From assembly GCA_022791255.1 (NCBI GenBank), contig JAAVYR010000004.1, positions 25,992-89,991 on the forward strand: DNA of 64,000 nucleotides. Reading direction: 5' to 3'. This document shows positions 726-53,811 of the stretch, in pieces. The position numbers and the translations under genes are program-made. Within the stretch, counting starts at the first letter, position 1. Every line of letters begins with the position of its first letter. Under the pieces are notes generated by a model. The model was not told the DNA's origin and did no database searches. It saw nothing but the letters and a program-made list of their open reading frames with translations. This stretch comes from Peptococcaceae bacterium (GTDB lineage: Bacteria; Bacillota; Dehalobacteriia; UBA4068; JAAVYR01).

Positions 726-2702
726 TTATTCTAGCTCTTTTTCTGGATTTTCCGAGCACTCTTCCGCAAAATCAATAGATACCTTCGGTGCGCAAGCCTC
801 TTCCTCTTGGTCTAAAAGGTCCCAAGTAGGTTCCTCTGCCACTGCGGATGGCACCTCTCCTGCTTCAGCAGCCATAGCCGCTTCTTCTGCAGCAGCTGTC
901 CGTCCTTCCATGATAGCATAAAATTCATCTGCTTCGATGGTTTCCTTTTCCATCAAGGCTTGGGCTACCTTGTGCAGCTTATCGATATGCTCCGTGAGAA
1001 TGGCAGTGGTCCGCTCATGGGCCTCGTCTATCATTCTTCTTGCTTCTTTGTCGATCGCATAGGCAATGGCGTCACTATAGTTTCGTTCATGAGAGATTTC
1101 CTTACCCAGGAATACTTGGCTATTGTCTTTCCCAAAGGTTAATGGCCCCAGTTCCTCAGACATCCCATATTGGGTAATCATAGAACGAATGGTCTCTGTC
1201 GCCCGTTCCAAGTCGTTTTGGGCGCCAGTGCTGACATCTTTTAAGATAATTTCTTCTGCGATACGCCCACCTAAGAAGGTGCAAAGCTGGTCTTCCAGAT
1301 AAGACTTGGTAATGAATTTCCGGTCTTCTTTTGGCAAAAGCAGTGTATAGCCGCCTGCACGCCCCCGGGGAATAATAGAGATTTTATGGAGCGGGTCAGC
1401 ATTAGGCAGATAATAAGATACCACCGCATGACCTGCTTCATGATAAGATACCAGTTTCTTTTCCCGTTCATTGATGGCGCGAGATTTCTTTTCAGGGCCG
1501 GCAATGACCCGCTCGATGGCGTCTTCTAAATCCTTCATAGTGATTTTACTTTGACCATGACGGGCAGCCAGAAGCGCCGCTTCGTTTAAAGTATTGGCCA
1601 AGTCCGCCCCAGTAAAGCCAGGTGTCCGCCGCGCTAATACATCCAAGTCTACGCCGGCTTCTAATGGTTTCCCTTTGGCATGGACAGCCAAGATTTGCCG
1701 TCTGCCGATAACATCTGGTAAATCTACCGTAATCTGTCGGTCAAACCGCCCCGGACGAAGCAGTGCCGGGTCTAAAATATCTGGTCGGTTGGTCGCTGCA
1801 ATGACGATAATCCCTTCATTGGCAGAGAAGCCATCCATTTCTACTAACAATTGATTTAAAGTCTGTTCCCGTTCATCATGTCCGCCACCTAGGCCTGCGC
1901 CTCTTTGGCGGCCTACTGCGTCGATTTCATCGATGAAGATAATGCAGGGCGCCTGTTTTTTGGATTGTTCAAATAAATCCCTTACCCGAGAAGCCCCCAC
2001 CCCAACAAACATTTCTACAAAGTCAGAACCACTGATGGTAAAGAAGGGTACCCCCGCTTCTCCTGCTACCGCTTTGGTAAGCAAAGTTTTCCCAGTCCCC
2101 GGAGGTCCATAGAGGAGCACGCCTTTGGGAATTTTCGCCCCAATGGCGGAAAACTTCCGTGGATTTTTTAGGAATTCTACCACTTCAGCCAGTTCTTCTT
2201 TAGCTTCGTCTACCCCCGCTACATCTGCAAAGGTAACCTTCTTTTTATCATCCGTAGAGAGCTTTGCCCGGCTTTTGCCGAATTGCATCACTTTCCCGCC
2301 GCCGCCCTGAGATTGCTGCATAAACAAGAAAAAGAATGCAATAATCAAAAGTGTCGGTAATAGCGTGGAAAATAATGTTACCCACCACGGCGGAGGCGGC
2401 TCTACATCATATTGTACTTTGATATCTTGGGCTTTTAAAAATTGCGGAAATTGCGGGTCAGGCGGTACTACGACCACATATTTACTTTTATCCCGCATGG
2501 TCCCAGATACCTGATACCGACCGCCATCGCTATCAGCCACAATGTCTGCCGTTTTGATGGTACCCTTCTCCACTTGCTCCATAAAGGTGCTGTAGTCCAA
2601 GAGTTTTACTTCTTGTGTTTGCGGTAAAAGCAAGCTGTAAGAATATAATAACATCAGTACCAACAGTGCAAATACTGTCATATTCTTGAGCGTCTTGTTC
2701 AA
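726..2702 (-). CDS. ftsH: ATP-dependent zinc metalloprotease FtsH
   Basis: N-terminal TM segments, AAA Walker A GPPGTGKT, second region of homology, HEAGHA zinc motif. 658 aa. Confidence 0.95.
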
Positions 2703-2879
2703 AATATTTCTCCTTTCCCCCCGGTATCCCCGGTTCCACTCTCTATCTCATCGCCCCAGGTAAAATCCCCTAAGGTCGTCTTTATATCTTCCTATATCTC
2801 GTTATTCGTTGTTATTATTTTATCATATCATAAATATTATTGCATTTCAAATCATATGCCAGTTTTCTTGCTATCTTTT

Positions 2880-4382
2880 TCATTCTTTCACGGTAAGATA
2901 CCAACCGCGAGCAGTCCCTTTTCGGTTAGCTTCTCCCATTTCTACGCACCTATTCCCATATCGCCTTGGTATCACCCAGAAGATTTCTTTGCCAGCAGCC
3001 AGCAACGGAATGCTGTTCCGCAAATCATTAGATACCTTTTCATTGATAAAATATTTTTTCAGCTTCATAGTGCCAGCCATACCTTTAGGAGAGAAAATAT
3101 CACCATCCCGTCTATTGCGAAGCACCATCTCCCGGCCCAGATTTTCCGGTAAAAAAATACGATTTTCTCCTAATATCAAGATGTCTTTCTCACTGTCAGT
3201 CTCCTGGCATCCTGGTCTTATCTCCACACGATGGCCAATTCCCGGAAAGGTAAGGGTAACCGGTTCTTCTATTTCCTTTAAGGGATAACAAAAATTTTTT
3301 TCTGCCGCCATGCTTTCCCGGTTTCTATGCCGCCTTAAATAAGAAAATACAAATTGCCTTTCTTCCCGGCAGCAAAGCACATCTCCCGGCAAAGTAATCT
3401 GCTCCCCTGCAACCAGAGAGCGAATAACTTCCACCATCTCAAAAGAAAGATGATTAACAGGCAGATGATGATTACTATTTGCTATCTTATCCCCTCCGCC
3501 TTGAAACATTCTGAAAAAATATTGTAAAACTCTTCTTTGTAAAGCAACCGATAAGTTCATAAATGGCTGCACAGAAAAAACACCCTGTTCCACACCTATT
3601 CTAGGCATTACTTTCCCATAGGCTGCAGCCGTCTCTTGCACAAGATATTCGTTTTCTGCTTCGCAAATCTCCCCTAACTGCCCAAGAACCGCAGTCACTT
3701 GTGGGTTGCATTGCCGGCAAAGAGGCATTAGCTGCCAGCGAATATAGTTCCGCAAATAAGCCGTGTCAAAGTTACTTTCATCAGTACAATAAGCAAGACC
3801 ATATGCCCTGCAATAAGCTAAGATTTCTTCTTTGGTTACCGCTAAAAAAGGCCGAATAATCCGATTATTTTTCGCCTGCATGCCGCCAAGCCCCTGCATG
3901 CCGCTGCCCCGCAACAGGTGCATGAGGATCGTTTCCGCTTGGTCGTCTAGGTGGTGGGCCGTGGCAATGACAGCGTCATCATACAATCCCGCCACTTCAG
4001 AAAGGAAATCATACCGCGCCGCTCTTGCCGCACTCTCCAGGTTATGGTCTTCGCTATCGTCCGCCAGCTGCTGCACACGACAGGCCTTGCTAAAGAGCGG
4101 AATGCCGGCCTCCTTGCAGTATGCTATGACCAGATTACGGTCGGCAGTGCTTGCCGTCCCACGGAGACAGTGGTCTAAGTGGGCCCCCACCACTTGGATA
4201 CCCCATGCTTTTCCCTGCTCATGGAGGAAGTGCAGCAACGCCATAGAGTCCGCCCCACCGGATACCGCCACGATGACAGTACCATGAGACGCCAGCAGTC
4301 TTTTTTGTTTGATAAAGTTTCCGATTTTTTCTTTTATTTTTTGCACCGGAACTGCATTTTTTTGCCGAGATTTATCTTCCAT
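2880..4382 (-). CDS. tilS: tRNA(Ile)-lysidine synthetase TilS
   Basis: PP-loop SGGADS near the N-terminus and a TilS-type C-terminal domain. Lies immediately upstream of ftsH as in Bacillus; no hprT between them. Confidence 0.9.
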   Translation of the reverse strand: MEDKSRQKNAVPVQKIKEKIGNFIKQKRLLASHGTVIVAVSGGADSMALLHFLHEQGKAWGIQVVGAHLDHCLRGTASTADRNLVIAYCKEAGIPLFSKACRVQQLADDSEDHNLESAARAARYDFLSEVAGLYDDAVIATAHHLDDQAETILMHLLRGSGMQGLGGMQAKNNRIIRPFLAVTKEEILAYCRAYGLAYCTDESNFDTAYLRNYIRWQLMPLCRQCNPQVTAVLGQLGEICEAENEYLVQETAAAYGKVMPRIGVEQGVFSVQPFMNLSVALQRRVLQYFFRMFQGGGDKIANSNHHLPVNHLSFEMVEVIRSLVAGEQITLPGDVLCCREERQFVFSYLRRHRNRESMAAEKNFCYPLKEIEEPVTLTFPGIGHRVEIRPGCQETDSEKDILILGENRIFLPENLGREMVLRNRRDGDIFSPKGMAGTMKLKKYFINEKVSNDLRNSIPLLAAGKEIFWVIPRRYGNRCVEMGEANRKGTARGWYLTVKE

Positions 4383-4498
4383 CTAGCTTCTTTCCTTTTG
4401 TCATGTTGCCCTTTTCTTTTTGCGTAAAAAAATAGAAAAGGATTTCCTTTTCTATTTTTTCGGTTTGTTATGGCTATTTCCTTTTTTACCGGCAAAAT

Positions 4499-6937
4499 TT
4501 ATGCAGTCATTTCTGCTACTAAGATGGTAATATCATCCTGTACATCCCCGCCACTCCTAGCAATAGCCTTTGCCAGCAGCTGTTCAGCCAGCTCCTGCGG
4601 GTCATGGCTTTCTATGTTTGCGATTTCCTCGATAATCCATTGATAAGTGCCCGCTTTGTCAGCGTCCATCAGACCATCGCTTGCCATGATAATCATATCC
4701 CCGTCTTGGATTTGCTCTTGGATACATTCTTTTTCCACCGAGGTTAAGATACCTACCGGCAGACTTGCTCCTTTTACTACTTGCACCTCGTCGCCTCGCT
4801 TGATAAAGCTAGGCGCCGCACCGGTTTTTACAAACTCCACACCGCCGGAATATAAATCCACCACACATAAGTCTAGCGTGACTAAAGCTTCTTCATTACC
4901 TTGCAGCGCCAAAGAAGCATTGACGCTATCAATGGCAGTGTCTTTAGAAAACCCGATTTCCAGATATTTAGACAAAGTTTCTATAGCCGCGCCAGAATGC
5001 GCCGCCGCCTTTGCACCAATACCCATGCCGTCACTAATCATCACTAACTGCTTGCCGGACTCCAGCATCATAGCACTACCCTGGTCACCACAGACCCCTT
5101 GGGTAGCCTTTGCCAGCTGTGCTTTGCCGATTTCCATTTTATGAGCACCTGCTTCTAAAAGGAAGAAGGAACAGTTTTCCCCGCATTTGCTGGTGCAGCT
5201 ATGCTCATGGATTTCATATTTTTTTCCTAAAAGTAGAGAGATTTCCTGTTCCAGAAGAGACCGACAAGCCGTTTCCCCTGGACATTGTGGGAAATTCACC
5301 CAAACAGAAAGAGACTTCCCATCAATGAAATTTACCCCAGCACCATCTACTGGTAGCCCGCGCGCAATGAGCGCCCCTGCCAGCTCCCGCTCTAAGGCTT
5401 CCCGCTCCTGGGAAAAACCGCCAATTTCCCGCGCGACTTGCTCCAATACCTGAGCCGTACCCAGCATTTGATGGGCGATGAGACTTTGCGAGCACTTCTT
5501 TTGGGCCTGCCAAAAACTGCTGCGGCAATACATTTCATAGAGACAGTTAATAGATGCTAATAACTCTTTTACATGAGGACAACGCTTGCGGAAATTTTCC
5601 GGCACATCCTGATAAGAAGCGGCTCCTTTTAATTCTGCTGCCTGGAATAAATCCATGACGCCTTTATAGGTTTTGCTATAATCAATGCGCCAGCAGATTT
5701 CCTGGACCGAACACTTGCTGCACATTTGGCGGGAAAGATGGTTCAATACCGTATGAATGCTGTCCTCTACCGGTTCTTCCTTTTCACTTAATACCAAAAG
5801 GTTTTGGCCCAATTCCTGGAAAAGCTCCCCTGCATTCCGAAGCCGCCGCACCGAAAGCCGCAACAGGCGCTCGCTTTTTTCCTCTTTCGCGCTGCGAAGA
5901 TTTGGCTGAGTGGTAGCTTTTTTTAGTTCCCGTATCCAGCCACGAGGAATAGCAAAGAAAATAATACCGGCAAGAGCCGAAGTAATAATGGCACTTGCCA
6001 TTTCCGAAGTTGGTAATATGTAGATAGAAAGAATTAAATTCCCTAAAATAAAGCCCATCAAAATCCCGGTGCGGCCAAAGCTGTTAAAAGCACCGGCTAA
6101 AAAACCAGCAAAGGCATAAATACCGATAATGCTAGGCGCTACCAATTCCGAAAGACTTGGTACAATGCCCATCATGGCCCCAATACCAGCCCCATGTCCA
6201 GCGCCCCCCAGTGCAGCGGCTAGCAGGATAACCACCCGACTTGCCACCTGTCTTAGCTCTATTCCACCGATCGTCCAGTCCCCAAAACCTGCCACTAATC
6301 CTAAAATCAACACAAAACAGCAGATTAACTCATCGGTGCTAAATCTCCGCTGGATATATAGCCGCTTCCAAGCAGAAAAAGCCACTAAGAAGACAACAGA
6401 CAACCCCGCCGCAAATAACCCCTCAAATAGCGTGACAAATAATCCATAGCTATCTCCGCCACCGATGGCAAGACTGCACCCTTTGATGACCGCAATACAG
6501 GAAAACACCAACGCCGGCACCAGATACCATTGTTTCTTTTTGTCCAAAGGATAAAAGGCAAAGAGCCCCGATGCCACACTAATGATTGCCAGATAGACCC
6601 AAAATTCCCCAAGGGGCATAGCCGTGTATAACCCAATAGCCACCGGCAAAAGAAGTGAAATAGCCTGCCGCCGATAGCTCACTGCCACTGCTGCAAGAAA
6701 GGCAGTAGCAAAAGGAAAGAGCCCACCTAAAAGCTGGGCACGGCTCATAAGAAACCCCATAATAGAGAGAACGATTAACTGCTGCGTTCCCAAGGAAATA
6801 CCCCACACCCCAGGAAGAGAAATACCCACCTTTTCTTCTTTAAGCATATCCTCTTCCTCTTGTCTGCGATAAGGATGTATTTGAGGATTTGTCGACATAA
6901 AACCACCGCCTCGTGAAAGATAGTATGTAGGAAACAT
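4499..6937 (-). CDS. spoIIE: stage II sporulation protein E (SpoIIE), membrane-anchored PP2C phosphatase
   Basis: About 10 N-terminal TM helices plus a C-terminal PP2C domain (MISDGMGIG…DGDMIIMASDGL). 812 aa, compared with 827 aa in B. subtilis. Synteny spoIIE–tilS–ftsH. The true start may be an internal Met (MSTNPQ… or MLKEEK…). Confidence 0.85.
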   Translation of the reverse strand: MFPTYYLSRGGGFMSTNPQIHPYRRQEEEDMLKEEKVGISLPGVWGISLGTQQLIVLSIMGFLMSRAQLLGGLFPFATAFLAAVAVSYRRQAISLLLPVAIGLYTAMPLGEFWVYLAIISVASGLFAFYPLDKKKQWYLVPALVFSCIAVIKGCSLAIGGGDSYGLFVTLFEGLFAAGLSVVFLVAFSAWKRLYIQRRFSTDELICCFVLILGLVAGFGDWTIGGIELRQVASRVVILLAAALGGAGHGAGIGAMMGIVPSLSELVAPSIIGIYAFAGFLAGAFNSFGRTGILMGFILGNLILSIYILPTSEMASAIITSALAGIIFFAIPRGWIRELKKATTQPNLRSAKEEKSERLLRLSVRRLRNAGELFQELGQNLLVLSEKEEPVEDSIHTVLNHLSRQMCSKCSVQEICWRIDYSKTYKGVMDLFQAAELKGAASYQDVPENFRKRCPHVKELLASINCLYEMYCRSSFWQAQKKCSQSLIAHQMLGTAQVLEQVAREIGGFSQEREALERELAGALIARGLPVDGAGVNFIDGKSLSVWVNFPQCPGETACRSLLEQEISLLLGKKYEIHEHSCTSKCGENCSFFLLEAGAHKMEIGKAQLAKATQGVCGDQGSAMMLESGKQLVMISDGMGIGAKAAAHSGAAIETLSKYLEIGFSKDTAIDSVNASLALQGNEEALVTLDLCVVDLYSGGVEFVKTGAAPSFIKRGDEVQVVKGASLPVGILTSVEKECIQEQIQDGDMIIMASDGLMDADKAGTYQWIIEEIANIESHDPQELAEQLLAKAIARSGGDVQDDITILVAEMTA

Positions 6938-15229: not shown

Positions 15230-16774
15230 TTAGCCTTGATATTGGACTGCATGAGACACCCCCTTAAAAAAGATTGTCATTTGTTCCTTGCCTTCAATGA
15301 TAATCTTTTCCACTATCTCCCGATAAAAATCTTCCCGATATACCGCACCAGCTAATATCTCTTCACAACAACCCATAATTTGCTCCATTTTATCCCGTCG
15401 ACTTTTCTCTGTATCTAATACTTTCCCAGCAAGCTGATGGCTTCTTATTTGCTCTTGTAGTTTTCTTATCATCTCTTGGTAGCTCCCATTCTTTCTAGTA
15501 AACAGGTCCTCTCCTATCTGCCCCTGCAAATAGATATGGAGCAATTTCTCTTGTTCCCGCTCTAGCTGGGATAAGCGGTCCGCCCACTGTTCCTGCTGCC
15601 GCTTATCATTACCATCCTGCTGTAACACCTGTTGTATTCCCCCATAAAAAGCAGCCATCCTTTGCCGTCTCTCCTCTGCTGCTATGATTGGCCTCAGCTG
15701 CACGGCCATAGCCTGCAAAAGGATTTGCTCCAGGTAAACTTGACTGATTGTAGGACAAGCGCAAGCAGCCGCTCCCTTTTTGATTTTCCCATAACACTGC
15801 CAGTAAAGATATGTTTTCTCCCCCCGTTTTTTGGTTCTCGCTACCAGCCGATTACCGCACTGGCTGCAATAAAGCTTTCCAGAGAGACCATAACTTTGAG
15901 AATAACGACTGCCCTCTCGTTGCCGCCTGCCCCGCTCTTGTAAGATGGCTGCCGCCTTGGCAAAAAGTGCTGGAGAGATAATTGCAGGATGGTGCTGCTT
16001 TAAAACGATGAATGGTTCTTCCCCTCGGTTTACTTTCTTTTTATGAGTCAGATAGCTAGGCGTATAAGTTTTCTTTTGTACTAAATCCCCCATATATTTT
16101 TGGTTTTTGAGGATTTTCAATACTACATTATGAGACCATTCTTGCCCACCACTAGGCGTAGGGATACCTGCCGCTGTTAATTCCCGCGCAATCAAAGAAG
16201 CACCCTTACCTTCTCGGACAAATTTATCAAAAATCTGCCGGACAACAGCAGCACCAGTTTCTTCAACTTCTAACGCCCCTTGTCGGAGCTGATAGCCTAA
16301 GAGGCTGTGTCCAAAGACAATGCCTTTTTCCATTTGTCGTTTTTGTCCCCACTTGACTCGCTCAGAGGTTTTGCGGCTTTCCTCTTGAGCAATAGAGGCC
16401 ATAATGGTCAGACGAAGTTCTGCGTCTGCATCCAGCGTGTTAATATTATCATTAAGAAAAATCACCCCAATACCCCATTCCTTCAGCTTACGGGTATAGT
16501 AAATGCTATCTAGCGTGTTACGAGCAAAACGGCTAATTTCTTTGGTAAGTAAAATCTGAAATTTGCCAGCTTTGCCGTCTGCCAACATTTTTAAAAAACC
16601 CCGCCGATGGTTTACAGCAGTCCCAGAAGCCCCCTCATCCACATAGATATCTGTTAGCTCCCAATCAGGTTGCTGCTGAATGTATTGGCGAAAAAATTGT
16701 TGCTGATTGGCTAAAGAATTAAGCTGTTCATCCCTTTCTGTAGATACCCGACAATAAGCCGCCGCCTTAATCAC
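15230..16774 (-). CDS. large serine recombinase (SpoIVCA/CisA-like)
   Basis: N-terminal resolvase catalytic domain (IKAAAYCRVSTERDEQ…SLANQ), a recombinase domain, zinc-ribbon cysteines (CSQCGN…CYGK) and a C-terminal coiled coil. Probable GTG start at 16774 (MIKAAAY) rather than the 16822 given in the ORF track. Confidence 0.9.
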   Translation of the reverse strand: MIKAAAYCRVSTERDEQLNSLANQQQFFRQYIQQQPDWELTDIYVDEGASGTAVNHRRGFLKMLADGKAGKFQILLTKEISRFARNTLDSIYYTRKLKEWGIGVIFLNDNINTLDADAELRLTIMASIAQEESRKTSERVKWGQKRQMEKGIVFGHSLLGYQLRQGALEVEETGAAVVRQIFDKFVREGKGASLIARELTAAGIPTPSGGQEWSHNVVLKILKNQKYMGDLVQKKTYTPSYLTHKKKVNRGEEPFIVLKQHHPAIISPALFAKAAAILQERGRRQREGSRYSQSYGLSGKLYCSQCGNRLVARTKKRGEKTYLYWQCYGKIKKGAAACACPTISQVYLEQILLQAMAVQLRPIIAAEERRQRMAAFYGGIQQVLQQDGNDKRQQEQWADRLSQLEREQEKLLHIYLQGQIGEDLFTRKNGSYQEMIRKLQEQIRSHQLAGKVLDTEKSRRDKMEQIMGCCEEILAGAVYREDFYREIVEKIIIEGKEQMTIFFKGVSHAVQYQG

Positions 16775-16973
16775 ACCCCATACCTTCTTCCAGATGAAGC
16801 AAACATTGTTGATATACCTCACCAGAAATCAGCTTTTCATGGTATAAGGATATGAGCAAAGCCTTTTGTATCATGGGCCAAAAGGAGCTGTTTTCCTTCG
16901 TAAGAAATTGACAGATACCGGGTTCTGTCTGCGTTTGAATAAATGTAAACATCATGCTTACCTCATTTTTCAC
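16767..16973 (-). CDS. small hypothetical protein upstream of and overlapping the recombinase start
   Basis: 68-aa ORF ending 8 nt inside the recombinase start, suggesting translational coupling. No known motif. Confidence 0.35.
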   Translation of the reverse strand: MKNEVSMMFTFIQTQTEPGICQFLTKENSSFWPMIQKALLISLYHEKLISGEVYQQCLLHLEEGMGCD

Positions 16974-17123: not shown

Positions 17124-18542
<1,419 letters not shown>

Positions 18543-18559
18543 CTATTCTTCGCCCCTTC

Positions 18560-19681
18560 TTACGCAATGCTGGGACCGATTTGGAAGATGGTCAGAGTCA
18601 CATTAGCACCACCGCTTCCATTATCGCTTAATGCAACAGTATAAGGAGATTTCACCCCTAAAAAGATTTGTTCCCCAGCTTGAAAAGGCGCTGTAAAGCT
18701 ACCACTAATAACAGTTTCATTGCTAAGGAAGGGAGCCCTCGCACCTGCCATTGCGGTCTTTGTGCCACTGCCCACTGAGACGATACCCATGGCAGCGTCT
18801 GCACTAGCACCACTACTAGGCATCACAGAATACATGATTACATATAATCCACCCTGCTGAAAAGTAATCGTTGTATTGTCTGGTTCCAGTGTAATACCAG
18901 TGTTGGTATTGGCTGTTAATGTAATGGGTGCATATGCCCCATCAGAGTCGATAGTTTGCGTTGCAAAAGATGTAAAGTTTGCTACTGATGGCGTCGGTAT
19001 CGTACCAGTGGCACCTGTAGCACCTGTTGCGCCCGTAGCACCGGTTGCGCCTGTAGCACCTGTAGCACCAGTGGCACCTGTTGCGCCCATAGGACCAGTA
19101 GCTCCTGGCAAACCTTGTGGACCTTGAGGACCTTGGGGACCTACCGGACCAGTAGCACCTTGCAGTCCGGTAGCCCCAGTGGCACCTGTAGCGCCTGGCG
19201 CACCTTGAGGTCCTTGGGGACCGATTGGTCCTACAGGACCAGCAGGGCCAGCTACCCCTTGGGGTCCAGTATTACCTCTTAATCCCTGGATACCAGGACA
19301 ACCTACATCACCTTTGGGACCAGGTTCACCTTGAGGTCCTTGAGGCCCAGTAGGACCGGCAGGCCCTTCTGCCCCAGGGCAGCCTCTAGGACCGATTGGC
19401 CCTTGATTACCCTGTGGGCCTTGGGGCCCCATGGGACCTTGGGGACCTATAGGACCAGTAGGCCCCACCTGTCCACCGCAAGAATTACAACCGCAATTAT
19501 GGCAACCACAAGTATCATCACAATCAGTATTTGTATCGCAGTCGCACCAATCATAATTGCGAGAATAGGCTGCATTGCTTACGGTATAGGAAACAGTGGC
19601 AGCAGCTGTTTCATTAGGATAGATTTTCCGAGCGCTGTTGGCATAAAAATCAGCACGAGGATCGCCTGCATAAAAACGCAT
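18560..19681 (-). CDS. collagen-like triple-helix repeat protein, BclA-like (second copy)
   Basis: G-X-Y repeats ([20 protein letters not shown]…), Cys-rich N-terminus ([25 protein letters not shown]) and a C-terminal globular domain. Start trimmed to ATG 19681, which has RBS aaggtaga. Lies 26 bp upstream of the other collagen gene, so probably one operon. Confidence 0.8.
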
Positions 19682-19909
19682 TCTACCTTGTTGAGTTGGA
19701 TATTCTTTCAATCTTTTCCCTCCAATCAAATTATTATCCGGAACGGGAAGATAAATAGAGATGAAAGAGAAATAGTACTAGTTTTCTTCATCAATGTATT
19801 ATATGAAAAGTTTGTCCCCAAGGTGCGAGGGGTTGCCCTGAAAAATAAGACAAATTTATCTGCTGCTAACAGCTGTCCACCCATTGTTGCCCATTTTGCC
19901 TCTTCTATA

Positions 19910-20444: not shown

Positions 20445-20520
20445 TGGAGCCACAGACCGGAGTCGAACCGGTGACCTCTACCTTACCAAGGTAGCGCTCT
20501 ACCTACTGAGCTACTGCGGC
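20445..20520 (-). tRNA. tRNA-Thr (anticodon GGU), CCA encoded
   Basis: Reverse complement folds as a cloverleaf: acceptor GCCGCAG/CTGTGGC, D-arm GCTCAGTAGGTAGAGC, anticodon loop TTGGTAA, T-arm ACCGGTTCGACTCCGGT, discriminator T plus CCA. Confidence 0.9.
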
Positions 20521-47195: not shown

Positions 47196-47245
47196 AAAAA
47201 GAACCCTTATCTATCAATAACAAAGATAAGGGTTCTTTTTTCTTT
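47196..47245. terminator. bidirectional terminator downstream of the S41 peptidase gene
   Basis: agaacccttatc…gataagggttct hairpin flanked by A7 and T6. Confidence 0.7.
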
Positions 47246-48488
47246 ATGCCGCCTCTTCTTGCTCGGCAGCAACAATTTTCGCTTGTAATACTTCTACAGC
47301 CTTTGCCAACTGAGGGTCTTTTTCTACCAGACCAGAAAGGGAGTCAGAAAGAGGTAAATTTTCTGGCCAAGGCACTTCATAGTCAGCAGCTAAGCCCTTC
47401 TTATGGACTTCCCGTCCCTGGGCAGTGAAGTACTGCGCATAGGTATAACGGACGCCGGCGCCGCTAGGAAGACCGATGACATATTGGGCAATGCCTTTGC
47501 CATAGCTATTGGTGCCCACCGTATCCGCCCGATGATAGTCCTGCATAGTGCCGATAAATACCTCTGAAGCACTAGCACTGCCATCGTTTTGCAGGATGAC
47601 AATAGGGATATCAATCCCTTCCATATCCCCTACATAGCGCTTTTTCCCAGTATTATCATTCATCAAAAGCAGCGTATCTTCTTTGGGCAGGAAATAGTCT
47701 AAAAGCCAAAGAGCACCATCCAACACACCGCCTGGATTATAACGTAAATCAATAATGATACCGTCTAAGTCCCCATCTTCCTTCTCTGCCAATAAATCTT
47801 CATAAACAGTTTGAAATTCTTCAGAGATATTCATATTAAAGCTGCTAATGCTGATATAGCCTAGATTAGCATTTTCCTTCTCCAGCCGTTTGCCAGTAAC
47901 AGCTTGGGCAGAGACTTCTTCCCTTGTCAGTGTTTTTATGGGCAAAACCTTACCATCCCGCTGGATTTCAATGCGGACCTTGGTGCCTATCTCACCCTTC
48001 ATCTTACCGGTCACATAGTCTAGGTCCTTACCACGGACATCTTCCCCATCAACGCCCACTACAATATCGCCATATTGTAAACCGGCCCGCTCCGCCGGAG
48101 AATGACGAAAAGGCATCATCAACATGACAGCTTTATCCTCTGGCCGCGTCGTCACATAAATACCGATGCCGCCATAAGTACCAGAAAGCTTACTAATCAC
48201 ATCATCATATTCCTCTGCTGTGAAATAAGCAAAATAATCATCATGGTTCCGCTCCACAAAAGCATTCATCGCTGTCGTTACAGCTTCAGCTCGCTGGGAC
48301 CCATCTATGGCACCATTGTCCCCCAGGAAGCTACTATTTACGGTCGACTGCCAATAAAAAAAGCCAAAACTACCCACTAGTATCAAACACACTGCAGCAA
48401 CCATTTGCCACCAGCGGATAGGGCGTTGTTCCATTTCCATAAACATTCTCCTTCTATAATTAAAATCAAAAATATGATTAACTACCAC
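47244..48488 (-). CDS. S41 family carboxyl-terminal processing peptidase (CtpA/CtpB-like)
   Basis: PDZ domain plus S41 catalytic region (GGVLDGAL…SASASE). N-terminal TM anchor. Confidence 0.85.
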   Translation of the reverse strand: MVVNHIFDFNYRRRMFMEMEQRPIRWWQMVAAVCLILVGSFGFFYWQSTVNSSFLGDNGAIDGSQRAEAVTTAMNAFVERNHDDYFAYFTAEEYDDVISKLSGTYGGIGIYVTTRPEDKAVMLMMPFRHSPAERAGLQYGDIVVGVDGEDVRGKDLDYVTGKMKGEIGTKVRIEIQRDGKVLPIKTLTREEVSAQAVTGKRLEKENANLGYISISSFNMNISEEFQTVYEDLLAEKEDGDLDGIIIDLRYNPGGVLDGALWLLDYFLPKEDTLLLMNDNTGKKRYVGDMEGIDIPIVILQNDGSASASEVFIGTMQDYHRADTVGTNSYGKGIAQYVIGLPSGAGVRYTYAQYFTAQGREVHKKGLAADYEVPWPENLPLSDSLSGLVEKDPQLAKAVEVLQAKIVAAEQEEAA

Positions 48489-48632
48489 TTAGCACTCCCT
48501 CAAACAACAGAGGCAGCATCTTACTTTTTTGCATTTTGTGGCTATATCTATATTTATATCCTGTAATTTTATTAAGTATACCACAAGTCATCTAGAAAAA
48601 ACAGAAGGGGTATTTCCCCTTCTGTTAGATTT

Positions 48633-49913
48633 TTATTTGAGGTACGGCCATGGGCTGGTATGTTTCCCATTAATTCTGGTTTCAAAGTGGAGGTGATTGC
48701 CAGTGCTATAGCCGGTAGTACCAACCTTCCCTACTTCGTCCCCAGCCTTTACTTGTTGCCCCGTGGTCTTCATGGTGATGGCACTCATATGACCATAGAG
48801 GCTAGAGAGCCCATTACCATGGTCAATGATAACCATATTGCCATAAGCATTGTTCCAGCCAGAGAAGATGACTTTGCCATCAGCTGCCGCAATAATCTGG
48901 GTACCTTTGGGCGCCGGCAAGTCGATGCCGGTATGCCACTTATAGACTTTCAGCACAGGATGCAACCGTTGGGCATATTCAGAAGAAACTCGGGTATGTC
49001 CCGGCAGCGGCCAAGTAAAGATACCGTTATATTTCCCGCTGCCTTTTGGCTGCAGCGCTTGGATTTTTTTAGCGATGTCAGCGTCTGCCGCTTCCATTTC
49101 ATTATAAAGCTGTTGGGCTTGTTCCCGGTTGTTTTCTGCCGCTTCTAAGAATTTTGCCTTTTGGTCTTTCATATTTTCCAGGTTTTCCATGGAGGTTTCT
49201 TTTTCTTTTTTTAATGCTTCTAGTGTCGCTTTTTTCTCTTCTAGAGCAGCTTTTTTCTCTTCGATAACTTGTAAATCTGCCTCGATTTGCTGGAGCATTT
49301 TCTTATCTACTTCCATGACGCGACCCCATAATTCATAGCGAATGAGGAAGTCGCTAAAGCTGGTGGAGTCAAAAACCACATCCATCATAGAAACTTCACC
49401 ATTCATATAGATTTCCCGCATACGGTTTTGGAAAAGAGCCATCCGTTCATCTAACTCCCCTTGGGTCTTTTCCAATTCTTTGGTCGTCACAGAGATTTGG
49501 TCTACCGCTTGGGAAAGTTTCTTTTCGACGCTATTCATTTCCTTTTCCATGGTAACCAGTTCAGCGTCTAGTTCTGCTACACGAGTACGCAGTTCTTTTT
49601 CTTTGGTTTTAGCCGCCTGGAGTTCTTTTTTTTGAGCAGCCAATTCTTTTTGCAGTTGGGCTTGTTCCGCTTTATATTGGGCCAGCAAGTCCTCATTATC
49701 CCCATACACCGGGAAGATAAACATAGACGCCGCCATCATCACCGCACAAAGGGTAAGACCGACTTTAGACCGGTTTCGCATTTTGCTAAAGGCCAGCTCC
49801 GACCAGGAAAATGGCACCTTTTCCCCAGCATGACGGTCCCGCCAAAAATCCATCATATTTTCATTCACTGCATTTTTTTCATCTTTTTCATCTATCTGCA
49901 TGGATTTACACAC
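48633..49913 (-). CDS. M23 family peptidoglycan DD-metalloendopeptidase with coiled-coil region (EnvC/PcsB-like)
   Basis: Long coiled coil followed by an M23 domain (HTGIDLPAPKGT…GNHLHFE). Encoded directly downstream of ftsEX. Confidence 0.8.
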   Translation of the reverse strand: MCKSMQIDEKDEKNAVNENMMDFWRDRHAGEKVPFSWSELAFSKMRNRSKVGLTLCAVMMAASMFIFPVYGDNEDLLAQYKAEQAQLQKELAAQKKELQAAKTKEKELRTRVAELDAELVTMEKEMNSVEKKLSQAVDQISVTTKELEKTQGELDERMALFQNRMREIYMNGEVSMMDVVFDSTSFSDFLIRYELWGRVMEVDKKMLQQIEADLQVIEEKKAALEEKKATLEALKKEKETSMENLENMKDQKAKFLEAAENNREQAQQLYNEMEAADADIAKKIQALQPKGSGKYNGIFTWPLPGHTRVSSEYAQRLHPVLKVYKWHTGIDLPAPKGTQIIAAADGKVIFSGWNNAYGNMVIIDHGNGLSSLYGHMSAITMKTTGQQVKAGDEVGKVGTTGYSTGNHLHFETRINGKHTSPWPYLK

Positions 49914-49922
49914 CTCCTGTCC

Positions 49923-50813
49923 TCACACTTTTAAGAACCGTATCAGGGAAAAGACGCTGCCCACAATGCCTAAAAGCGCGCCTCCTGCAATCAAATACAA
50001 AGATAACATGGGCAAGACTCCCGACATGGCCGCCATAGGGAAAAAGCCAATAGCAGAATTAATATAGTCAGCCACCTTCCCATAAGAGAAAAACAACACC
50101 GCCACCGCAATGATCGCGCCAAACATCCCTAAAAGAGCACCTTCAATAATAAACGGCCAGCGAATAAACCAGTCTGTCGCCCCTACATATTTCATCAGCT
50201 GCACTTCCTTGCGGCGAGCATACACCGTAAGACGAATGGTCATCCCCACCAGAACGACTGCCCCTACAGCAAGGAGCACCATGACCCATAGGCCAATACT
50301 GCGCACCACATCGGTAAAAGCAAAGAGCTTGTCCACCGTTTCTTTCCCATAGTTCACCTTGAGCACCCCAGGTAATGTGGCAATTTTAGAGGCTAAGCCA
50401 TCGATTTGCTCTGGCGTCTCTGCCTTCACACTATAGCAATCCGGGAAAGGGTTCACCCCGCCAAGCGCCGTAAACAAAGTCTCACCATAGCGTTCCACCA
50501 TAAAATCCATGGCGTCGTCTTTGGTAATAGCCGTTACTTCAGCGACGCCCGGTAACCCCTCTAAAGTAGTCTTCATCCCCGCTAAGGCTTCCTCTGTCAC
50601 AGTATCTTCTAAGAATACGGCGATTTCTACATCAGACTCCAAGTTTCCCGCCGCATAGTTTACATTAAATAAAAGAATGCCAAATACCCCACACAAAAGC
50701 AGTGTAATGGCCATGGTCGTAATGGCAGCAAAAGACATCCAGCCATTCCGCTGCAAAGAGTGGAAGGCGTCCGGCACAATATAACGCATACTTTCTAGCT
50801 TCATAAGGACCAC
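49923..50813 (-). CDS. ftsX: cell division ABC transporter permease FtsX
   Basis: 4-TM FtsX topology with a large extracellular loop. Overlaps the ftsE stop. Confidence 0.85.
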   Translation of the reverse strand: MVLMKLESMRYIVPDAFHSLQRNGWMSFAAITTMAITLLLCGVFGILLFNVNYAAGNLESDVEIAVFLEDTVTEEALAGMKTTLEGLPGVAEVTAITKDDAMDFMVERYGETLFTALGGVNPFPDCYSVKAETPEQIDGLASKIATLPGVLKVNYGKETVDKLFAFTDVVRSIGLWVMVLLAVGAVVLVGMTIRLTVYARRKEVQLMKYVGATDWFIRWPFIIEGALLGMFGAIIAVAVLFFSYGKVADYINSAIGFFPMAAMSGVLPMLSLYLIAGGALLGIVGSVFSLIRFLKV

Positions 50814-51484
50814 CCTCCGATACGGTCTGAGATAAGTCTGCCCTTTTCTAACACTAATACCCGCTTTTGCATAGTATCTACCAAGTTACGGTCGTGAGTC
50901 GCCATGATAATGGTGGTGCCACTATCGTTAATTTCCCGCAACAACTCCATCAGTTCTTCGGAAGTATCTGGGTCTAAGTTCCCTGTTGGTTCGTCAGCAA
51001 AGAGAATGATCGGGTCGTTGATAATCGCTCTCGCTACAGCCACCCGTTGCTTCTCCCCACCAGAAAGCTGATGGGGAAAATGCTTCAGTCTGTTTTTTAG
51101 CCCCACCCGTTCTAAGATTTCTGGAACCTTTTTATCAATTTCCTTTTTCGGCCGTTCAATGACGCGCATAGCAAAAGCCACATTTTCCTCCACGGTCTTA
51201 TCCTCTAAAAGACGAGAGTCCTGAAAGACCATGCCCACATTACGACGGAAAATCACTGTTTCCTTAGAGGATAGGCGAGAAAGACTTCTTCCTGCTACGA
51301 TTACCTGCCCAGAAGTAGCCAACTCCTCCCGAAACAAAAGACGGATCATAGTGGATTTCCCTGCACCACTAGCACCAGTCAAAAAGACAAACTCGCCTTT
51401 ATCGATGGCAAGATTAATATTCTTTAGCGCCACTACATTTTGCTTTTTATAGATACGGTCCACATTGACCATTTGGATAATCAA
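50801..51484 (-). CDS. ftsE: cell division ATP-binding protein FtsE
   Basis: Walker A GASGAGKST and LSGGEKQR. 227 aa. Confidence 0.9.
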   Translation of the reverse strand: MIIQMVNVDRIYKKQNVVALKNINLAIDKGEFVFLTGASGAGKSTMIRLLFREELATSGQVIVAGRSLSRLSSKETVIFRRNVGMVFQDSRLLEDKTVEENVAFAMRVIERPKKEIDKKVPEILERVGLKNRLKHFPHQLSGGEKQRVAVARAIINDPIILFADEPTGNLDPDTSEELMELLREINDSGTTIIMATHDRNLVDTMQKRVLVLEKGRLISDRIGGWSL

Positions 51485-51959
51485 CAGGCCATTCCCCCCT
51501 TATCCCACTATTTAAATCCTGCTTTCCTGCTCAGTGGCATATTCTATTAACTTTTATCCTTTCGACACATTTTTTTCTTTTCCTTTTTCCTTCACCTAAT
51601 TTTCACATTCTTTTCCCTTACTCTCTTACATAGACAGAAAAGAGCGAGTTATAGTTCCCAATCATTACCTTTTTAGAGCCCCTTTTTCCCAGCCTTCCTA
51701 TAGTACAACACCAAAGAGAAAATTTCTCACTCTGCTTTATCTTACACTTTCCCCCGAAACTAATCAGCAACCATATTTCTATTTAACCAGCTTCCCACAT
51801 AAAGAGATACATATTACCCTCAAAATGTATTTCCAGCACAAAATCGAGCGCTATCCCCTCGTCATATTTTTTTCTTTTGGCGAAATTTCTATTTTCCCTG
51901 GTCAAAAAAGTTTCCTTTTTCGTGATTTTTTGGTAAAACTATCCCCAGAAACATCTTGT

Positions 51960-51994
51960 TTATCCACAAAATTTTTTGTGGATAATGTGGATAA
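51960..51994. promoter_or_regulatory. cluster of three perfect DnaA boxes (TTATCCACA), two forming a palindrome
   Basis: ttatccaca (51960-51968), then tgtggataa (51977-51985) and tgtggataa (51986-51994), in the 620-bp intergenic region upstream of ftsEX. Confidence 0.6.
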
Positions 51995-52107
51995 CATTGT
52001 TAATAACCTGTTAAATTTTAAGAAAGTTATCCCAATCCCATCCAAAATCCATTCACAATTTGTTTCTTTTTGTCGAAAAATACAATTTTTGTATTTGGAA
52101 AAACAAC

Positions 52108-52857
52108 TTATTGAAAATCTCTGCCGGCAGCCACCGTAATCACCCAGACGCCTGCCGCGCCCATCTGCTTCAACGCTCTGCCGCAAGCATAAGCTGTAGC
52201 ACCAGTGGTAAAGATATCATCTACCAGCAAAATCCGCTTTCCCGTTAAATCCACATCAAGCGGTACAATGGCGTCTCGCATATTGGCAATACGCGCCTCT
52301 CTGCCTAAAGTCGTCTGAGATACTACATCTGCCCGTTTCGCCAGCAGATGGTCGGCCCAGGGCACATCGATGCCACGGCTTACCGCCTGGGCCAAAAGTA
52401 AACTTTGGTTATAACCCCGTTTTGCCATGGTTTTCTCCGTCACCGGCACTGAAGAAACAAAATCAAAAGAAATATAGGGGTATTCCCGTCTCACTAATTC
52501 GGTTAGCAACACACCAAACCCCTTGGCCAAAGATTTTTGTCCTTCATACTTGAAAGCAAGCAGCTGGTCCCTAAGATATCCCTGGTACACTGCTACCGCC
52601 CGTGCACTCTCAATAAAAAGCGGCCGTTCTATCTGACACCAATGACACAAACTATGCTCCGAACGAATAAACACCCCGCAACAATCACAAGACCTACCCC
52701 AGCTATGATGGTCCCATTTTGCAGCACAACTGGAACAAAGATATCCTTGAGGAGTAGATTTACCGCAAAGAAGACATTTTTCTCCTGGAAACAGCAATTC
52801 TACTGCAGCTGCACCATATTCCTTTAACCATGTAAAAAGACGACTTTCCATAGCCAC
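52108..52857 (-). CDS. comFC: ComF family protein (ComFC, phosphoribosyltransferase-like)
   Basis: N-terminal Cys4 zinc finger and a C-terminal PRTase motif (LLVDDIFTTGAT). Confidence 0.8.
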   Translation of the reverse strand: MAMESRLFTWLKEYGAAAVELLFPGEKCLLCGKSTPQGYLCSSCAAKWDHHSWGRSCDCCGVFIRSEHSLCHWCQIERPLFIESARAVAVYQGYLRDQLLAFKYEGQKSLAKGFGVLLTELVRREYPYISFDFVSSVPVTEKTMAKRGYNQSLLLAQAVSRGIDVPWADHLLAKRADVVSQTTLGREARIANMRDAIVPLDVDLTGKRILLVDDIFTTGATAYACGRALKQMGAAGVWVITVAAGRDFQ

Positions 52858-53182
52858 GGCCCCTTACCATTTTTATAAATTTCCGATTATTTTTTATAAT
52901 TATTTCTTATATAAATTATTTTAGCTTATCCCCTAGGAAAAAGGCAACTCCTCTCTGAAACTAGTGAAACTAAAAACATCAGAAAATGATTTCATATTTA
53001 CCGCTGCCACTACATACCATAAAACAAAAGAAACCAAAACCATCTCCTGTCAAAAGCGGCCCAAATCAGAATGAACCCAATCAAGCCTGTCGGGATTTGT
53101 AAGAATATTTGGGCAGGAAATACAGGTCTTGCACCGTATTCTAATATTGACAGCGGCAAGAAGGCATGTAAGGAGGAATACT

Positions 53183-53425
53183 ATGTCACCCACCCATCCA
53201 TCTGAAAAAGCCCTGTTTATCACATTCAGTAACACCACACAAGCCATGAATATGGAAGAATGCTGCAGCAGATATGGTCTGCCGGGGCAATTGGTCCCCG
53301 TACCCAGGGACATCAAAGCGTCCTGCGGTCTCGCCTGGAAAACGACGCCAGAACAAAAAGAGCCGCTAACACAAATGATGAAACGAGAAAAAATCCGTCC
53401 AGAAAAATTCGTGCTGCAACCCTAA
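53183..53425 (+). CDS. DUF3343 domain protein
   Basis: About 80 aa (ALFITFSNTTQAM…VPVPRDIKASCGLAW). RBS taaggagg before ATG 53183. Confidence 0.55.
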   Translation: MSPTHPSEKALFITFSNTTQAMNMEECCSRYGLPGQLVPVPRDIKASCGLAWKTTPEQKEPLTQMMKREKIRPEKFVLQP

Positions 53426-53761
53426 CCATATAAAACGATAACCCAGCCATGGACAAAAAATTTTTTCATAGCCAAGCAGGGATTTCTTCTTCCCCAAAGG
53501 AAAGTTTTTTAGGAATTAAGAAAAAAGAGTTGAATTTTTCAAAAAAGTGTGTTAGAGTGGTTATAGTAAGAAGCGGGCGTTTTAGCCCTAAAGTTTTTAT
53601 TGCATTGATGCCCCTGTTTTTGGACAGGGATACACATATACTTTTTCACAACTACATATGGTTTGTACAGGAGCTAAACACTTTTTAGCTTAATACCTCG
53701 GGTTTACATCTCATGGTGACTTACATGATTTACTTTGCATCCAATTTTATGACACCGTTAC

Positions 53762-53790
53762 TTGACATCTTGGGAATTGAGATATTATAA
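53762..53790 (+). promoter_or_regulatory. sigma-A-type promoter upstream of the isochorismatase-family gene
   Basis: TTGACA, a 17-nt spacer, then TTATAA/TATTAT, followed by RBS gaggagg and ATG 53812. Confidence 0.5.
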
Positions 53791-53811
53791 AATTTGAGGA
53801 GGTATTTTCCA

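Follow-up and report, generated by a model that had tools for sequence, protein, structure and literature searches.

A conserved DnaA-box cluster of predicted high affinity upstream of ftsEX in an uncultured gut Peptococcaceae bacterium

Gene organisation around ftsE

The window is the whole stretch of DNA analysed here, 64 kb in length. The best genome match for its FtsE is an uncultured Peptococcaceae MAG from mouse gut (97% identical). The genes flanking the region of interest, a comFC-like gene on one side and a row beginning with ftsE on the other, are all encoded on the minus strand:

52108-52857, minus strand: comFC-like gene with double zinc ribbon and phosphoribosyltransferase domains, upstream of the spacer
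50801-51484, minus strand: ftsE, first gene of the downstream row (47244-51484)
49923-50813, minus strand: ftsX, in the downstream row
48633-49913, minus strand: hydrolase with a PcsB-like coiled coil and an M23 domain, in the downstream row
47244-48488, minus strand: S41/PDZ peptidase of the Ctp type, in the downstream row

Between the comFC-like gene and ftsE there is a gene-free spacer of 623 bp with a GC content of 0.37, in agreement with a preliminary description that had noted about 620 bp here with no convincing gene. No conserved open reading frame was found in the spacer: translated similarity to the relatives runs through all frames, which are interrupted by indels of 1, 10 and 12 nt. 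A 104-aa open reading frame (51825-52139, plus strand) is rejected as a gene for these reasons, and so is a 112-aa gene called in the related contig L081, the start codon of which falls in the variable spacer. No Rfam family matches the spacer at its gathering score; the SpF25 RNA family gives 25.8 bits against a gathering score of 48, and because this hit is simply the inverted boxes described below, aligned as a stem, we discount it. Motif scans for LexA, parS and the strict SigH pattern (AGGAWWW ... GAAT) returned nothing, and CodY-like matches appear only with three mismatches.

Elsewhere in the window SpoIIE, TilS and FtsH are encoded at 726-6937, and YchF is encoded as well. The comFC-like gene has no comFA beside it (window 52108-53794). 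In the relatives a divergent 80-aa gene resembling Se/S carriers precedes comFC, and the corresponding open reading frame in the window (53449-53688, plus strand) has no Pfam hit at 1e-6. A large serine recombinase gene (15230-16822) adjoins genes for two collagen-triple-helix-repeat proteins (17124-19729) and a tRNA gene (20448-20520), and the segment 15230-20520 may be an integrated element.

The DnaA-box array and its conservation

Three perfect DnaA boxes lie in the part of the spacer nearer to comFC, two of them in tandem and the third inverted:

51960-51968, plus strand: perfect DnaA box TTATCCACA, the R box, reading TGTGGATAA on the ftsE-coding strand; invariant in relatives
51969-51976, no strand: 8-bp gap between the R and F2 boxes; invariant in length, free in sequence
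51977-51985, minus strand: perfect DnaA box, F2, placed head-to-tail with F1, which it abuts
51986-51994, minus strand: perfect DnaA box, F1; invariant in relatives

Both the string and the coordinates (51960-51994) match those given in the preliminary description. The 64-kb window holds 3 perfect matches to TTATCCACA against 0.63 expected, all of them in this cluster. Boxes with one mismatch number 19 against 16.5 expected, so that the window as a whole is not enriched. From the rate of 0.63 we calculate by our own arithmetic that a TTATCCACA triplet within 35 bp would arise by chance about 2e-8 times per window.

ComFC homologues with 60-87% identity gave access to the spacers between comFC and ftsE in related genomes. 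The arrangement TTATCCACA-TTATCCACA-N8-TGTGGATAA is present in all contigs long enough to include the site (L001, L081-L083, L086, L091 and L092), and L087 has both tandem boxes before the contig ends. When six sequences are aligned, the columns average 56% identity; none of the 27 box positions varies, and the gap keeps a length of 8 bp throughout. The gap reads AAAAATTT in the window and ATCAATGC, AGAAAAAA, AAAAAAAC, ATTTTTTG and AAACCAAC in the relatives, its first base being the only conserved position. Because the 9-mers and the length of the gap are invariant while the gap sequence drifts, selection acts on the three 9-mers and their spacing, and not on a palindrome. The 26-bp palindrome remarked upon previously has two arms of 12 bp and, between them, a TT that breaks the symmetry (24 of 26 positions symmetric), and its conservation in the relatives is limited to the 9-bp arms. 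Since the gap changes freely, the palindrome is incidental and without significance of its own. Assemblies of relatives (L084, L085 and L087-L090) tend to end about 40-120 bp past comFC or within the tandem boxes; strain-level differences in the spacer, or further copies of the box module at other places in these genomes, may be the cause.

The three boxes form part of a larger composite block, which contains weaker DnaA-box-like 9-mers and motifs of other types:

51939-51947, plus strand: weak DnaA-box-like 9-mer CTATCCCCA, positionally conserved
51998-52006, minus strand: DnaA box with one mismatch, TTATTAACA, which is also the proximal half of the WalR-type repeat
51998-52014, plus strand: direct repeat TGTTAA-TAACC-TGTTAA (TGTTAATAACCTGTTAA)
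52027-52035, plus strand: weak box-like 9-mer TTATCCCAA, in 11-bp register, positionally conserved
52038-52046, plus strand: weak box-like 9-mer CCATCCAAA, in 11-bp register, positionally conserved
52049-52057, plus strand: weak box-like 9-mer CCATTCACA, in 11-bp register, positionally conserved
52071-52077, plus strand: TGTCGAA, the consensus heptamer of the Spo0A box

These five additional box-like 9-mers are kept in position and have at most two mismatches to TTATNCACA in most lineages, bringing the total to as many as eight sites in 119 bp (51939-52057). The preliminary count of three boxes in 35 bp therefore stands for the boxes themselves and is too small for the element, a composite block of about 150 bp. 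The three 9-mers in 11-bp register (52027-52057) come closer to the consensus in the most distant relatives, with 1-2 mismatches. Spacings inside the block are constant across the relatives, and the distance from the block to ftsE varies from 364 to 536 bp.

The direct repeat fits the WalR consensus TGTWAH-N5-TGTWAH (PMC9210968). On the ftsE strand it reads as a PhoP-type TTAACA-N5-TTAACA, so the predicted site would suit either regulator. It is the one match in the 64-kb window, where 0.61 are expected, it is complete in 5 of 6 relatives, and it lies 3 bp from the perfect boxes. A predicted WalR-type site fits an operon that encodes FtsEX together with a PcsB-like hydrolase. The Spo0A-like heptamer, which on the ftsE strand is TTCGACA and starts 83 bp upstream of box F1, is exact in 4 of 6 relatives, has one mismatch in L091 and is lost in L092.

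Predicted affinity was expressed as the A value, obtained by adding the affinities of four successive boxes and dividing by the mean spacing between them, using boxes with at most one mismatch to TTATNCACA and a threshold of 0.3. In Bacillus subtilis A exceeds 0.3 only at eight stably bound regions, which score 0.36-1.64 (Ishikawa 2007, PMC2533591). The boxes at 51960-52006 give A = 2.79, the same value as in all five relatives tested, while the best other four-box set in the window that uses none of these boxes gives 0.026 and outgroups lacking the boxes give 0.01. The site is intergenic, outside oriC and above the value of 0.3 that marks stable binding by the B. subtilis metric, and on sequence grounds it appears to be a genuine, selectively maintained, predicted high-affinity DnaA-box cluster outside oriC. 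That it is a secondary cluster of the B. subtilis type, as proposed in the preliminary description, gains support from the margin over the threshold and from the strict conservation across relatives.

Like the B. subtilis clusters at yqeG-sda, ywlC-ywlB, yydA-yycS, gcp-ydiF, ywcI-vpr and thdF-jag, this one is intergenic and has at least four close boxes including TTATCCACA; it also shares with them a location away from oriC, lineage-specific neighbours and an A value over the threshold (PMC2533591, PMC3245932). Unlike them, it occurs in an uncultured gut member of the Peptococcaceae (class Clostridia) and has ftsEX as its neighbour, and its core is tighter, with three perfect boxes in 35 bp and a predicted A of 2.79 against a maximum of 1.64. 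The B. subtilis clusters have two roles, as operators (sda is activated; ywlC and yydA are repressed) and as negative regulators of initiation (PMC2533591, PMC3245932).

The association of the boxes with ftsEX is young. In sister lineages (FtsE 73-74% and 65% identical) the genes run secA-prfB-x-tkt-tkt-ftsE-ftsX-M23-S41, and the spacer upstream of ftsE, only about 150-300 bp long, lacks DnaA boxes. No perfect box was found within 800 bp upstream of ftsE at any of 79 other ftsE loci, and this result, together with the box-free nearest outgroups, leads us to reject the idea that such boxes are generally present upstream of ftsE. We also considered them as an ancestral feature of the region downstream of comFC; a distant ComFC locus (42% identity) has no cluster, which carries little weight because the synteny is unrelated. 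Closer to ftsE there is a second conserved element:

51561-51584, minus strand: proximal ftsE motif AGGAAAA-N11/12-(T)GTCGAA, lying 77-100 nt before the start of ftsE; conserved in all relatives

The outgroups without boxes keep AGGAAA(A/T)-N11-GTCGAA about 50-70 nt before ftsE (at about 4925-4952 in L156, 4940-4971 in L158 and 3920-3950 in L161). The motif may represent the -35 of a SigH-type promoter whose -10 is unusual; a Spo0A box (TGTCGAA) is the other possibility. Since it is shared with box-free outgroups, ftsEX presumably had a proximal promoter before the DnaA block arrived, and the promoter-like motif is older than the boxes. The block was added later, in the lineage in which comFC came to abut ftsE.

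Recurrence of the box triad in metagenomic contigs

A scan of metagenome contigs for the exact pattern of two tandem boxes, 8 bp and one inverted box, the gap being fixed at 8 bp by design, identified the triad in 63 gut-metagenome contigs, none of which has comFC or ftsE adjacent to it. In 59 of the 63 (within L093-L155, for example L099:4906-4949) the triad sits between murC and a dnaB/dnaD-like gene with a DnaB_2 domain, followed, where the contig is long enough, by a dnaI/dnaC-like gene with an IstB/DnaA-ATPase domain. Pairwise identities among the DnaB_2 proteins of these contigs range from 37 to 100%, which indicates a broad clade. The tandem pair is preceded there by a further box, in most cases ATATCCACA, and most families have TTCGACA 31-61 bp upstream. 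From the end of the inverted box it is 26-27 nt to an extended -10 (TGTGGTACACT, TGTGTTATGAT and similar), and the co-oriented gene starts about 100 nt downstream. In the remaining four contigs the triad is upstream of other co-oriented genes. In all five gene contexts found the polarity of the module with respect to the downstream gene is constant. In L128, L131, L146 and L114 the triad lies within larger box clusters, and the downstream genes, judged by their N-terminal sequences alone, resemble trmB, feoA and cytidine deaminase, with one unassigned.

As the triad is found just upstream of an extended -10 in 59 contigs, we interpret it as a recurrent, polar, promoter-associated DnaA operator, putatively clostridial. 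The arrangement in the murC contigs looks like a conserved operator for DnaA, and possibly Spo0A, that would act on replication-initiation genes across a broad clostridial clade. The ftsEX site has the identical core TTATCCACA-TTATCCACA-N8-TGTGGATAA in the same polarity, and a TTCGACA upstream, as in most families of the murC module. It differs from that module in having a weak candidate promoter in place of a clear extended -10, in the distance to the next gene (475 bp as against about 100 nt) and in carrying the WalR-type repeat where the murC module has its third tandem box ATATCCACA.

Three boxes of which two point in the same direction and one in the opposite direction also make up the core of the Escherichia coli DARS1 and DARS2 elements (Sugiyama 2019, PMC6868365). 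The opposed boxes are 8 bp apart here, in all six lineages, and 5 bp apart in DARS; moreover, all three boxes are perfect here, whereas DARS1 has the full consensus at box II only. DARS2 requires IHF and Fis sites (PMC6868365). Given the difference in the gap, the resemblance to DARS is only formal. We know of no DARS-type activity in Firmicutes.

Candidate promoters and possible roles of the cluster

Two pairs of promoter-like hexamers overlap the array. They come from our own positional scan of the six sequences, and the first of them falls below the threshold of the prediction tool:

51938-51966, minus strand: candidate distal promoter toward ftsE, with -35 TGGATA in the R box, a 17-bp spacer and -10 GATAGT/GATATT
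51988-52017, plus strand: candidate divergent promoter into the comFC 3' end, with -35 TGGATA in F1, an 18-bp spacer and extended -10 TGtTAAATT; in 5 of 6 sequences

Both candidates are weak and each is made up partly of a DnaA box. The distal pair, which is sigma-70-like, occupies the same position in 6 of 6 sequences but is a weak match to the consensus (8 of 12 positions), and its candidate -10, GATAGT at 51943-51938 on the ftsE strand, lies inside the invariant GGGGATA(G/T)TT.

We propose that DnaA, probably as a cooperative oligomer of ATP-DnaA, would occupy the array as a transcription factor. Its target would be the distal promoter, with the -35 inside the inverted box, firing toward the genes for FtsE, FtsX, the M23 hydrolase and the S41 protease, and repression is the most probable sign of the effect, given the overlap of box and -35. 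An input of replication status would in this way be added to an operon that already had its older proximal promoter, the WalR-type and Spo0A-type sites would be further inputs, and the same site may also hold DnaA away from oriC, as B. subtilis clusters do. Control of ftsEX by the cluster is plausible, and the coupling to ftsEX and sporulation put forward in the preliminary description would be a reasonable extension of it; a more specific reading, for which we see about an even chance, has array-bound DnaA acting on a distal promoter that reads into ftsEX, probably as a repressor. In its favour are the polarity of the module toward ftsE, the same as in the murC contigs, and the -35 and -10 elements that overlap the boxes in 6 of 6 sequences. 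Against it, the boxes are 364-536 bp from ftsE, and their distance to the conserved proximal motif varies between relatives from 293 to 393 bp, so they cannot act on the proximal promoter in a fixed geometry. The distal promoter matches at only 8 of 12 positions and is partly the box itself, its -10 might just as well be a weak DnaA box, a second candidate promoter faces the other way, and the outgroups run ftsEX without boxes.

DnaA boxes upstream of division operons are found at C. crescentus ftsZ, at the B. subtilis ftsL promoter (by DnaA ChIP) and at E. coli ftsQAZ (PMC8203912), a placement that, like the one at ftsEX, suggests a connection of replication with division. The ftsEX site differs from these in its target, which is FtsEX with its hydrolase partners and not a gene of the Z ring or the late divisome. 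The E. coli boxes upstream of ftsZ proved to be non-regulatory, and, according to the same review (PMC8203912), it has yet to be demonstrated for any case that it determines when cells divide.

How replication is coupled to division and sporulation in Clostridia is poorly understood, and a strictly conserved site of very high predicted affinity in front of an FtsEX-hydrolase operon is a concrete candidate for such coupling. A bolder version of the proposal, which on present evidence we consider unlikely, makes the triad a dedicated clostridial DnaA sensor that, in this Peptococcaceae lineage, was joined to a WalR-type site and wired to an operon for FtsEX, a PcsB-like hydrolase and a CtpB-like protease. 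If true, the sensor module would constitute a direct checkpoint from replication status to septal wall remodelling and entry into sporulation; Clostridia, to our knowledge, lack the Sda checkpoint of Bacillus. DnaA-box clusters outside oriC are known as such, and what is new is this example upstream of ftsEX, with its FtsEX and hydrolase target, its composite control region and a reusable box architecture that can serve as a simple pattern when DnaA regulons are sought in uncultured Firmicutes. Should its function be titration only, the site would be one more lineage-specific DnaA-box cluster.

Titration is the essence of the main alternative, in which the site is a DnaA sink or initiation regulator, like the B. 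subtilis clusters or E. coli datA, that binds and possibly inactivates DnaA and so restrains re-initiation, with ftsEX an incidental neighbour. We regard this as possible though somewhat improbable. The array offers up to eight sites in 119 bp with an A value above that of every B. subtilis cluster, ftsE is far off at a variable distance, lineage-specific clusters beside different genes are typical of Bacillus genomes (PMC2533591), and deletion of six B. subtilis clusters leads to early initiation (PMC3245932). What this reading accommodates less well is the fixed polarity of the triad toward the downstream gene in five contexts, its association with a promoter in the dnaB/dnaD-like context, and the adjoining WalR-type and Spo0A-type motifs, which point to a transcriptional control region; in B. 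subtilis, however, the sink and operator roles are not exclusive. The skew polarity, which places oriC to the right of the window, and the SpoIIE-TilS-FtsH genes would also suit a sink, being compatible, by the gene order of B. subtilis, with an origin-proximal position, which is usual for such clusters. An actual chromosomal origin at this site, or a part or relic of one, is a different matter and hardly credible, for all that dense boxes in both orientations lie in an AT-rich spacer (GC 0.37) and three boxes in 11-bp register recall the DnaA-assembly regions of origins. Each of the 32 2-kb bins has a negative GC skew, and cumulative skew declines monotonically across the window with no inflection. 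GC3 skew oriented to the plus strand keeps its sign (-0.23 to the left of the site and -0.17 to the right; -0.36 and -0.34 for plus-strand genes alone), so that the minus strand is the leading strand on both sides. A Pfam scan of those window open reading frames of at least 100 aa that were judged to be genes found neither dnaA nor dnaN in the 64 kb, and the close sister lineages with the same ftsEX row have no such element. The initial view that this is not oriC is borne out by each of these observations.

Two further alternatives turn on the ability of the region to form hairpins. The inverted boxes can pair as a 9-12 bp stem and a terminator is otherwise not predicted after comFC, so they might belong to a hairpin in the comFC transcript, or else to the operator of some dimeric regulator, or be there by chance. 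A role of this kind, with no part for DnaA, is very improbable: the third, tandem copy is outside any hairpin yet equally invariant, all three copies are exactly the highest-affinity DnaA consensus, the palindrome drifts beyond the 9-mers, the stem is not followed by a U-tract, chance would produce such a triplet about 2e-8 times per window, and the triad recurs at a replication-initiation operon in unrelated, putative Clostridia. The module might instead drive another transcript, either an antisense RNA into the comFC 3' end, as the plus-strand pair TGGATA and TGtTAAATT kept in 5 of 6 sequences would allow, or a short non-coding RNA toward ftsE that would end before the proximal ftsE promoter. 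For the latter there is, under relaxed criteria, a hairpin with a T-run 135-158 nt downstream of the inverted box in 6 of 6 sequences, and the L001 hairpin is strong (dG -17, z -4.6). The other five hairpins do not exceed shuffled sequences in stability (z above -1.5), the RNAalifold consensus is -2.7 kcal/mol with negligible covariation, a stricter terminator scan was negative in the window, L086 and L091, and Rfam provides nothing beyond the weak SpF25 match; we consider such a transcript distinctly improbable. No convincing terminator was found between the boxes and ftsE, and a conserved terminator or short RNA about 150 nt past the boxes is rejected because only 1 of 6 hairpins beats shuffled sequences and the consensus structure is negligible. 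Between the DnaA block and the proximal ftsE promoter, L086 (about 5250-5285) and L091 (about 5245-5285) each have a hairpin with a T-run at the same alignment position, with differing stems, CTGTTATG/CATAACAG and GGCAG/CTGCC; the window lacks a stem at this position.
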